From a bacterium (GTDB lineage Bacteria > Patescibacteriota > Saccharimonadia > Saccharimonadales > Saccharimonadaceae), in NCBI GenBank assembly GCA_030431855.1, contig JAUIII010000001.1, forward strand, positions 25,089 to 89,088: 64,000 nucleotides of DNA, read 5' to 3'. Shown here piece by piece: positions 24,642-61,836 of this stretch. Under the pieces are notes generated by a model, which did no database searches, was not told the DNA's origin, and saw only the letters and a program-made list of their open reading frames with translations. The stretch's first letter is position 1, and the number at the start of each line of letters is the position of its first letter. The position numbers and the translations under genes were made by a program.

Positions 24642-24857
24642 TTAATGTTCTCCAAACATAGCCATGTAAAAACAGACAACCGAAATGACTCCACCAACAG
24701 GTATGCTAGATATCACAATGAGTGTGCTAAGAGGGGTGCCTCCACCAAGCACAGACCACATAACTGTTTCGAAATTTAGGGCTAGAAGAAAAACTGGAAC
24801 GAGTAGAGAAATAATTCCAGCTATTATCCATTTTGATTTCGACGAAGGGCTATTCAT
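24642..24857 (-). CDS. Hypothetical small membrane protein (71 aa, 2 TM)
   Basis: Two hydrophobic helices. The gene ends 5 nt before the prfA start. Confidence 0.5.
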
Positions 24858-25252: not shown

Positions 25253-25312
25253 ATCTGAATAATTGTAGCGTAAAGGGGTGGAAATGTCAAAGGTTAGAGT
25301 GTGTAGGTATGT

Positions 25313-25377
25313 GAGAGCCCGCCAGGAGAAGCCGTGGGCGAGGGAAGACCAATCACGGTCTTTCCCGGCGGGCTCTC
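25313..25377 (-). other. GC-rich nested inverted repeat at the 3' edge of the first high-GC cassette
   Basis: An 11-bp perfect outer stem GAGAGCCCGCC/GGCGGGCTCTC encloses an inner GGGAAGACC/GGTCTTTCCC hairpin. No T-run follows. Confidence 0.5.
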
Positions 25378-25396
25378 GTAGAGGCGGGCTGCGTGT

Positions 25397-25600
25397 TCAG
25401 GCCCTCGGACGCTTTGACGTCATGTGAACGACAGGTCCTAGGGCAAGGATCGCAGTGCCCAGGAAGACGGCTGACACTCGAGCGATGCTGATGAGGGTCG
25501 TACCGCCGTCCTTGAGCCCAGCGACCCAGACGGTAGCGGTGAGGATGCACATCGCAACAACCGCGACAGTGCACCAGACGATAAGCGCTCGTCTGCTCAC
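25397..25600 (-). CDS. Hypothetical 67-aa two-TM protein with high-GC codon usage
   Basis: GTG start with AAAGGAG about 8 nt upstream. Two hydrophobic helices. By my hand count, about 47 of 68 codons end in G/C, unlike the neighbouring genes. Confidence 0.5.
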   Translation of the reverse strand: MSRRALIVWCTVAVVAMCILTATVWVAGLKDGGTTLISIARVSAVFLGTAILALGPVVHMTSKRPRA

Positions 25601-25787
25601 GGCTTTTTCTCCTTTCGGATTTGAGTACCGGACATGAACGATGCTATTTAAACGCTTGTAGATTGTTATGTCAATGCTAGCCCTTGAAAAACAGTGGAGT
25701 TTACGCTATAATAACAGAGTAACAATTTTAACGAAGCACCGTTCGGACATATCCTATACAGGCCGAGCGGGAAGGGAGAAGGATACA

Positions 25788-61261: not shown

Positions 61262-61320
61262 TCGTCTTTGTATCTGCGTTTGGAACAGGTAACTAACTAA
61301 AAAAGAAGCCAAAAAAGAGT

Positions 61321-61352
61321 CGAGCCCCGCGCCACACGGGGAGCGGGGCTCG
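61321..61352 (-). terminator. GC-rich intrinsic terminator of the second high-GC cassette
   Basis: 10-bp stem CGAGCCCCGC/GCGGGGCTCG with a 12-nt loop, followed on the minus strand by ACTCTTTTTT. Confidence 0.65.
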
Positions 61353-61369
61353 ACCGGTGGGGTACGGGG

Positions 61370-61720
61370 CTAGAGAGCGGGCGAGAGGATGACCGTGAAG
61401 TCGAGTCCGAGCCTCACGCCCGTGTAGGTGATGATGACACCCTTCAGGTCGCGCAGGTGCTTGTCCAGCGTCTTCGCCACGAACTCAAGAGCGCTGTGGG
61501 TGTCGTCGCGGCCGAGGATCTTCTGGAGGACCTCGGTCTCGTGGGCGTCCGTGACCACGAAGCGCTCGTTGGCCTCCAGATGGATCAGCCAGGGCTCACC
61601 GAGGTTCTCCCTCGACGCACCGTAGCGGGCGAGAGCGGCGTAGTAGCAGGCAAATACGTAGTGCTTGGCTGCCTCGAACCTCTCGTCGCTCGCAGCGTCG
61701 GCGAAACTGTACTCTGACAT
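61370..61720 (-). CDS. Hypothetical 116-aa soluble protein with very high GC3 codon usage
   Basis: AAGGAG lies 7 nt upstream of the ATG. By my hand count, about 100 of 117 codons end in G/C. No recognised motif. Confidence 0.6.
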   Translation of the reverse strand: MSEYSFADAASDERFEAAKHYVFACYYAALARYGASRENLGEPWLIHLEANERFVVTDAHETEVLQKILGRDDTHSALEFVAKTLDKHLRDLKGVIITYTGVRLGLDFTVILSPAL

Positions 61721-61740
61721 GTGTCATCTCCTTGGAAGGT

Positions 61741-61763
61741 TCGTCGGCTCTTCTAGCCGACGA
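61741..61763 (-). other. GC-rich hairpin at the 5' edge of the second high-GC cassette
   Basis: 9-bp stem TCGTCGGCT/AGCCGACGA with a 5-nt loop. No U-run on either strand. Confidence 0.4.
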
Positions 61764-61836
61764 GAGTCGACAAAACAAAGCCTGATAAATATATTATATC
61801 AAAAATAGTAAGAAAAGTCAATACTTCACTTAATTC

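Follow-up and report, generated by a model that had tools for sequence, protein, structure and literature searches.

A putative small gene between rpmE and rpsB

The DNA considered here (the window) is a stretch of 64,000 nucleotides from a Candidatus Saccharibacteria metagenome-assembled genome (MAG) of 830 kb, in 28 contigs, 94% complete and of 48.1% GC. This source genome is called G000 below; other G-numbers denote the related genomes with which it was compared, all of them small (0.6-1.1 Mb). The subject is a GC-rich patch at 25311-25620, where a single small open reading frame (ORF) sits between divergent genes, rpmE on the minus strand and rpsB with tsf on the plus strand; beyond rpmE on the minus side come an ORF of 71 amino acids (aa) and then prfA. 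The small ORF occupies 25397..25600 on the minus strand, starts with GTG and encodes 67 aa. A Shine-Dalgarno (SD) sequence, AAAGGAG, can be read from the DNA at 25609..25615 on the same strand, 8 nt 5' of the GTG, and on its other side the ORF runs into the 3' module (25305..25396, minus strand), some 90 nt of conserved and structured sequence. As argued below, the whole may well be a resident small membrane-protein gene with an unusually rapid turnover.

The patch has a GC content of 0.619, as against 0.379 in the flank on one side (25253-25310, 58 bp) and 0.419 on the other (25621-25787, 167 bp). Across the genome, 310-bp intervals have a mean GC content of 0.481 with a standard deviation of 0.043, placing the patch at z = 3.2. 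Intervals of this length reach the same value in 1.2% of cases, and the majority of these belong to similar islands. When the whole genome was segmented, the borders of the island fell at 25317-25603.

The encoded peptide has the appearance of a small membrane protein with two helices. Kyte-Doolittle analysis gives two hydrophobic segments, and AlphaFold2, run without an alignment, predicts helices at residues 3-31 and 34-59 with a mean predicted local distance difference test score (pLDDT) of 72.8. Both ends of the peptide are basic, with MSRR at the N terminus and a C-terminal tail of KRPRA, which suggests that in such a model both termini would be cytoplasmic. Forty-seven of the 68 codons have G or C as the third base, and the GC contents of the three codon positions (GC1, GC2 and GC3) are 0.59, 0.56 and 0.69. 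An earlier account of this DNA, the sequence-only reading, had described the patch as GC-rich beside its AT-rich spacers and had placed within it a GTG-initiated ORF with an AAAGGAG, two hydrophobic helices, about 47 of 68 codons ending in G or C, and a nested inverted repeat with an 11-bp outer stem and a direct repeat. The base composition, the coordinates of the ORF and its SD, the hydropathy and structure predictions and the repeat search (see below) all agree with that description, and its hand count of codons proved exact.

Several lines of evidence bear on whether the ORF is translated. The six frames were scored with a codon model for which 27 other island ORFs (described below) served as the training set, and the annotated frame was the best of them, at +0.08 bits per codon as against -0.22 to -1.2 for the rest. 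With an SD at the optimal spacing, a promoter nearby, two helices with basic residues at both termini and five counterparts at the same position in relatives, the evidence that the ORF is coding is moderate. Another line comes from two related species, G001 and G013, which carry a counterpart of the ORF at the same position; the two ORFs are separated by 11 synonymous and 3 non-synonymous codon changes, a ratio with a binomial probability of about 3e-4 on the assumption that chance alone would make 30% of changes synonymous (a hand calculation). This indicates that the G001/G013 ORF has been under purifying selection, as expected of a real protein, and argues for a protein gene over a bare RNA element.

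The peptide stands alone in the databases. Searches found no homologue in a word-indexed library of 5.8 billion proteins, no family match in Pfam or PHROGs, no match to phage genomes by tblastn, none among metagenome contigs and viral contigs, and none in 300 Saccharimonadales genomes, where two matches at E ~0.007 were judged to be noise. An exhaustive HMMER search of 1.84 billion cluster representatives returned only two matches, in each case multi-stretch matches to proteins of 1000-1500 aa, and these were judged spurious. No paralogue of the peptide was found in G000.

The 3' module and the variable slot

The 3' module is built around a nested inverted repeat at 25313..25377 (repeat-search pairs I1 and I7) with arms at 25313-25336 and 25354-25377. 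Its outer stem (GAGAGCCCGCC/GGCGGGCTCTC) is perfect over 11 bp and encloses an inner hairpin (25342-25350/25357-25365). The sequence GGCGGGCT occurs as a direct repeat at 25367 and 25383, and the second copy, at 25383..25390 (direct repeat D6, inverted pair I6), reads AGCCCGCC in the sense of the ORF. In that sense the order of elements is stop codon, half-site AGCCCGCC, short spacer and long nested hairpin; the 5' arm of the hairpin repeats (G)AGCCCGCC and the 3' arm is GGCGGGCT(C)T. The half-site can thus replace the 5' arm of the hairpin in pairing with the 3' arm, giving two mutually exclusive helices that differ by 3-7 kcal/mol; RNAalifold chooses the pairing with the half-site as its outer helix. 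When folded on both strands, the region has an energy of -46.2 kcal/mol (z = -6.0) in the ORF sense and -52.4 kcal/mol (z = -4.8) in the other, and none of 200 shuffled sequences folded as well.

This module is homologous in 6 of the 20 species of the genus, always at the same locus (alignment A2, about 90 nt), and both 5' copies of AGCCCGCC are kept in all six. R1, a covariance model of the six modules, gave a single strong match per genome in all six species and no further match in G000. Among public genomes the exact core of the hairpin was found in one other record, that of Candidatus Saccharibacteria bacterium UBA1050, and so in Saccharibacteria only; two metagenome contigs also carry the module. 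The possibility that the hairpin is a dispersed repeat or a miniature inverted-repeat transposable element was rejected on these grounds, the hairpin being single-copy in the genome, and a 14-nt match to it on contig C9 lies inside a native gene and was put down to chance. Rfam gave only sub-threshold chance matches of the hairpin region to microRNA and small RNA models. Weak matches to R1 at a different locus, in G009 (C4:74888-74977, locus L083) and G015 (C1:90488-90585, locus L084), mark a related module with GACCGCC in place of GCCCGCC, which lies 3' of a GC-rich ORF of about 90 aa with what appear to be three hydrophobic segments.

The module is likely to be a terminator or insulator that also stabilises the 3' end of the transcript. 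G000 has a GC-rich stem-loop immediately after the stop codon and lacks a U tract; the tail that follows the stem is CUCUCACAU. A UUUU is present in G005 only, where the stem is bordered by runs of A and T in the manner of a canonical bidirectional terminator.

The spacer in which this unit lies was surveyed across the 20 species, in those genomes that have both of its ends on one contig. Every such genome has rpmE and rpsB on the two sides, and the length of the spacer between them varies from 137 bp to about 2 kb. The shortest, in G018, is an empty site of 137 bp, where the -35 box of one promoter overlaps that of the other back to back. Five species (G017, G001, G013, G004 and G005) have the same 3' module as G000 after a different minus-strand ORF of 55-85 aa, with two hydrophobic segments in each and an SD of its own of the GGAGG or AAGGAG type, 5-9 nt before the start. 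In all six module-bearing species the ORF therefore has the same place, the same orientation and a leading SD. Other species have ORFs of different kinds in the slot, on the plus strand. In six of the genomes (G014, G016, G012, G021, G008 and G006; loci L023, L004, L006, L027, L021 and L020) the slot is filled by one or two type IV pilin-like genes, also on the plus strand, with an N-terminal GFTIVELLIVIVVI motif.

How the content of the slot changes can be seen from a comparison of G000 with its closest relative, G017 (alignment A1). The flanks of the two are 90-92% identical, the hairpin about 89% and the rpsB leader 100% over 70 nt. The segment from about 25380 to 25722 cannot be aligned and has sharp breakpoints; it holds the ORF with its SD, together with the putative promoter of the ORF and that of rpsB. 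Comparison of the two slot ORFs at the protein level found no similarity. Between G001 and G013 the cassette is 94.6% identical and the flanks 93%. The flanks of G004 and G005 are about 76% identical and the cassette still aligns at 68%, with peptides that are barely alike, in what appears from these alignments to be very fast evolution in place. At that pace an identity of about 86-88% would be expected between G000 and G017, which argues that the segment in this pair was replaced. Smith-Waterman comparisons among the six peptides gave z values from -0.7 to 3.5, and only 1.8 for the DNA-homologous pair of G004 and G005; the proposal that the six are one sequence family could not be demonstrated, no pairwise similarity being significant.

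The promoters of the two neighbours face in opposite directions on either side of the unit. That of rpmE, TTGACA-17-TACAAT (25262..25290, minus strand; 11/12 in a consensus scan), is intact just outside the island and conserved with G017, the first 42 columns of alignment A1 on this side being nearly identical. The rpsB promoter, TTGAAA-17-TATAAT (25684..25712, plus strand; also 11/12), falls inside the segment that is wholly different from G017. A putative promoter for the small ORF, TTGACA-17-TTAAAT (25646..25674, minus strand), was read by eye in the AT-rich DNA, with its -35 box back to back with that of rpsB and 10 nt away. The equivalent place holds TTGACT-17-TATTGT in G017 and TTGATT-17-TATTGT in G001.

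Two further features next to the slot deserve mention. The 71-aa ORF between prfA and rpmE (24642-24857, minus strand) has 2-3 hydrophobic segments and the native AT-rich composition, and is a candidate for a second small membrane protein beside the unit. The rpsB 5' leader (25719-25787, about 70 nt) is 100% identical to that of G017, and in 15 genomes of the genus or family an 8-bp long-range stem just before the SD, GGGAGAAGGA, is kept by compensatory changes, with pairs such as CACCGUUCGG/CCGAGCGGG, CAACAUCUGC/GCGGAUGUG and ACACGCAC/GUGCGUGU. The leader may be an autoregulatory leader for ribosomal protein S2; an Rfam search gave no match to it.

GC-rich units elsewhere in the genome

The patch belongs to a larger class. 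Whole-genome segmentation of G000 gave 64 GC-rich segments, of which about 45 measure 230 bp or more. Twenty-eight of these islands were read and one small ORF was picked from each. The 28 ORFs have GC3 values mostly between 0.75 and 0.96, as against a mean of 0.47 for native genes; the native statistics come from a crude calling of longest ORFs that mis-framed the islands and was used for native genes only. A long and nearly perfect GC hairpin lies within roughly 5-30 nt 3' of every one of the 28 ORFs. Most of these hairpins have no U tract, and many are then followed by a separate, AT-rich terminator of the native type. Comparison of the island ORFs with one another revealed no sequence similarity, and none of the 20 tested against Pfam has a domain.

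Some of the islands have a motif of the form GAGCCC(C)GC/GC(G)GGGCTC, and one, at contig C6:130130-130240, resembles the hairpin of the rpmE-rpsB patch in design. A hairpin family that spans islands is not claimed, as the covariance model links none of them.

A second member lies within the window at 61318-61766, with 63.9% GC, a 116-aa minus-strand ORF (61373-61720) of GC3 0.87, and flanking hairpins; the likeness of architecture between this cassette and the patch, to which the sequence-only reading had drawn attention, thus holds. Parts of the cassette also occur at other places. Its hairpin sequences (61309-61370 and 61773-61826) recur elsewhere in G017, G018 and G019, in the first of which the hairpin adjoins a different GC-rich ORF of 119 aa, and copies of its AT-rich promoter stretch are present at different loci of G008, G005, G001 and G013. 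On contig C15 (10640-11700), two tandem GC-rich units lie between a gap-like gene and rpiB; their ORFs, for a 120-aa membrane protein and a 100-aa basic protein, are unrelated, and their 3' hairpins, 5'-leader hairpins and TTGACT-17-TATAAT promoters are 80-87% identical.

The class appears to be native to the lineage, its GC-richness being persistent and not the fading mark of a recent import. The case for this comes from a 606-aa island gene on contig C24, for which all homologues with a named source are from Candidatus Saccharimonadales. In two distant genomes the gene has the same neighbourhood, after rpsF-ssb-rpsR-efp, and a GC3 of 0.79-0.88 in DNA of about 46% GC; it is because the homologues are confined to Saccharimonadales, at the same site and equally GC-rich, that the composition looks persistent. 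Two islands common to G000 and G017 likewise have GC3 values of 0.80-0.92 in both genomes. Their synonymous and non-synonymous changes number 23 versus 40 and 22 versus 46, counts that suggest weak constraint on the ORFs. For the 116-aa ORF and for a 281-aa ORF with a GC3 of 0.96, no homologues were found. The C24 gene itself lies in a 4-kb GC-rich block of three ORFs (C24:800-5400), and its product has a TP-repeat region, an LPDTG motif and a hydrophobic C-terminal anchor; one homologue is beside a sortase gene.

A literature search found no paper that describes this pattern, and the persistently GC-rich orphan genes of Saccharibacteria are apparently an undescribed and unexplained class. Taken alone, the patch is a small orphan gene; its value is as a clean example of a pattern in which an 830-kb epibiont genome contains dozens of single-gene units with promoters of the native type, very GC-rich coding sequence and long GC hairpins. 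These units turn over fast at fixed slots, without a mobility gene and without drifting to the composition of the genome. One consequence is that calls of host-to-epibiont transfer in Saccharibacteria on the basis of composition are unsafe, and another is that an unexplained force acts on base composition. The units also make up a reservoir of small envelope proteins that evolve fast and may matter for host contact or defence, and the group in which they occur has now become genetically tractable.

Turnover of the unit and its likeness to known systems

The reading that we favor, with a probability only somewhat above one half (about 0.55), is that the patch is a resident, self-contained and rapidly turning-over small membrane-protein gene in a slot without a mobility gene. 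In this model a promoter in the AT-rich DNA would drive a transcript with a leader of about 40 nt and a strong SD, and the GTG-started gene would yield a 67-aa membrane peptide folded as a helical hairpin. The structured module of about 90 nt would close the unit, ending or insulating transcription before the rpmE promoter and protecting the 3' end of the mRNA. The unit lies in a slot bounded by the promoters of rpmE and rpsB, which stand back to back, and the content of this slot differs from species to species; its cargo would diverge very fast in place and also be replaced wholesale. An envelope role for the peptide, in host contact or in protection from phage or toxins, is only a guess.

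Replacement would most plausibly occur by homologous recombination after natural transformation, anchored in the rpsB leader on one side and in the conserved 3' module on the other, and would need no mobility enzyme. The sequence-only reading had noted a single-gene unit without a mobility gene, and the lack extends to the whole assembly: a profile search of the assembly (94% complete) gave no match to PF00589 (tyrosine recombinase), PF01797 (Y1 transposase), PF07282 (TnpB) or PF00078 (reverse transcriptase). Integron-like, IS200/IS605-like and retro-insertion mechanisms were rejected since no corresponding enzyme was detected. The lack of a PF00589 match means that no enzyme of the XerC/XerD type was detected in G000; all 14 control genomes gave matches. 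ComEC and DprA are encoded in G000, and Saccharibacteria have been naturally transformed in the laboratory, taking up linear DNA that was integrated at intergenic sites by means of homology arms (PMC10633639). The sharp breakpoints at conserved anchors fit allele replacement of this kind. Exchange by recombination is something we infer from the breakpoints only, because the same cargo was not found in two non-sister genomes.

Several observations weigh against the favored reading. The codon signal of the ORF, at +0.08 bits per codon, is weak beside the 0.21-0.9 of the other island ORFs and falls below every one of them, with a GC3 of just 0.69 and a GC2 of 0.56, and two more ORFs of 60-73 aa overlap it in other frames, as is expected in GC-rich DNA. 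The putative promoter was not reported by the consensus scan, its -10 box being without an A at position 2, and the missing U tract makes a terminator function less certain in G000. The view that the six slot peptides are one family draws on position, topology and the shared 3' module alone, and the failure to find any cargo in two non-sister genomes (see above) is a further difficulty. Finally, a poorly sampled donor of high GC content, such as a phage of the host, could still have supplied the 67-aa ORF.

Some of these points lead directly to other explanations. If the ORF were untranslated, the functional entity would be the structured module (a small RNA, a terminator or insulator, or a palindrome bound by a protein), with the ORFs lying in drifting filler. 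The weak coding signal, the several open frames and the conservation of both alternative helices would all be accommodated, and the sequence-only reading had itself named an ORF lost beside a conserved hairpin as the mark of an RNA element. What was found divides that expectation, in that the hairpin is conserved and the sequence of the ORF is not, but all six species that have the hairpin keep, in one and the same orientation, an ORF for two hydrophobic helices whose start adjoins an SD and a promoter. This, together with the 11:3 ratio in G001 and G013, the lack of an Rfam match and the failure of a promoter scan to find any site that would yield a separate hairpin RNA, makes the RNA explanation unlikely. 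A recent import from a donor of high GC content, either an actinobacterial host or its phage, would make everything from the SD to the hairpin foreign DNA set between resident promoters. Hairpins without a U tract are common in Actinobacteria, and the one in G000 is of this type; the composition boundaries are sharp, and the island ORFs have GC1, GC2 and GC3 values of about 0.59, 0.43 and 0.82, near those of an organism with 62-66% GC. Saccharibacteria live on Actinobacteria and are naturally competent (PMC10633639), and according to a preprint genes have been transferred between Actinomycetota and Saccharimonadia (10.64898/2026.09.16.751625). Yet no library searched contains a homologue of the peptide, the hairpin core was seen in Saccharibacteria only, and the GC-rich module is common to six species at the locus, so that this part at least is old. 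The other island genes, moreover, are orphans or are restricted to Saccharimonadales at the same site and with the same persistent GC-richness. The idea of an acquired cassette in the sequence-only reading has partial support at most: a recent insert of Actinobacteria type is not supported, and import in general we consider quite doubtful.

In size and hydrophobicity the peptide recalls the toxins found in type I toxin-antitoxin loci. The SD and GTG of G000 (25595-25618) can pair with the distal arm of the hairpin (25324-25339; inverted-repeat pairs I2 and I4), with AGGAGAA..GCCGUG facing CACGGCUUCUCCU. This duplex has an energy of -36.2 kcal/mol, versus -26.7 +/- 3.9 kcal/mol in shuffled sequences (p ~0.03), and in a hok-like locus the start would be masked in this way by the 3' end of the mRNA itself or by an antisense RNA. 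The five relatives are without such complementarity (shuffle p 0.2-0.9), for which reason a conserved 5'-3' clamp at the locus was rejected, and a scan for antisense promoters found no promoter-like site on the plus strand in or beside the unit except that of rpsB. Most known type I toxins have a single helix and are shorter than 60 aa; the peptide, with two helices, 67 aa and no match in Pfam or PHROGs, is unlike them, and a locus of this type is improbable. A remnant of a phage lysis or exclusion cassette, encoding a class II holin-like or superinfection-exclusion peptide, is more improbable still. Class II holins have two helices and a charged C-terminal tail, features that the 67-aa peptide resembles, but the neighbours are rpmE, prfA, rpsB and tsf, with no endolysin or phage gene nearby, and no PHROG, phage genome or viral contig gave a match. 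An artefact of assembly or binning, in which foreign GC-rich reads formed a chimeric junction, might be suspected in a MAG of 28 contigs, and error at the junctions had been raised by the sequence-only reading. It is very unlikely, indeed close to negligible, because the independent assemblies of five related species carry the hairpin module with the same layout at the same locus; two metagenome contigs carry the module as well, and the promoters on both flanks are intact.

A more speculative extension of the favored reading, and one that we hold only as an outside chance, is that an active process keeps the orphan units of Saccharibacteria GC-rich and that the 3' module is a two-state switch. 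The composition might be maintained by GC-biased repair or gene conversion at hot spots of transformation-driven recombination, or by selection for the codon usage of the actinobacterial host if the products or transcripts act on or in that host. As for the switch, the first half-site would be hidden under a ribosome that terminates at the stop codon, and the choice between the two helices would depend on this. Translation of the small ORF would thereby be coupled to the choice between termination and read-through toward rpmE.

Perhaps the closest parallels to the slot are the minimal mobile elements (MMEs) of Neisseria, which are described in outline as variable regions between specific conserved flanking genes (PMC3787668). 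Like these, the slot of G000 lies between conserved genes, rpmE and rpsB, and its content differs among close relatives, from an empty site to unrelated cargoes. It has no transposase, integrase, or dispersed or terminal repeats, competence genes are present in the genome, and the breakpoints are at conserved anchors; exchange between strains is here deduced from those breakpoints. What sets the slot apart from MMEs is a cargo of just one very small orphan gene, which has its own promoter and is followed by a conserved 3' RNA module. Cargo and module also have a GC content persistently above that of the genome, and the swapped segment includes the promoter of an essential neighbour, rpsB. On a larger scale, naturally transformable bacteria have hotspots between core genes at which genes are gained and lost although no mobile element is present. 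The slot shares with them its core-gene flanks, high accessory turnover, lack of mobility genes and competence machinery. Unlike them it measures only a few hundred bases, is one of dozens of single-gene sites in 830 kb, and belongs to a set with a compositional signature that persists.

Integron cassettes also combine a compact ORF with an imperfect inverted repeat of 60-90 nt and place unrelated cargoes beside similar hairpins. In the present case no integrase was detected in the assembly (no IntI and no match to the Phage_integrase family), the hairpin has no GTTRRRY core, its conserved motif being AGCCCGCC/GGCGGGCT, and the unit has a plausible promoter of its own and stands singly instead of in an array. 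The module, furthermore, occurs once per genome and is specific to the locus. At the level of the product, type I toxins and class II holins resemble the slot peptide in size, hydrophobic helices, charged termini and structured mRNA ends. The slot differs from these in that no antisense promoter was found, the 5'-3' pairing is not conserved and a lysis-gene context is lacking, and in that the peptide, which by prediction has the two helices and charged tail of a class II holin, has no family match.

The last comparison is with genomic islets of atypical composition, which are normally ascribed to recent transfer and to a later drift toward the composition of the host. The patch has the sharp compositional break, the orphan gene and the intergenic position of such an islet. 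Unlike these, it has no donor that could be found, and a counterpart ORF with the GC-rich module is present in five other species. The class to which it belongs, moreover, stays GC-rich at orthologous sites across distant Saccharimonadales, the opposite of what drift would lead one to expect.

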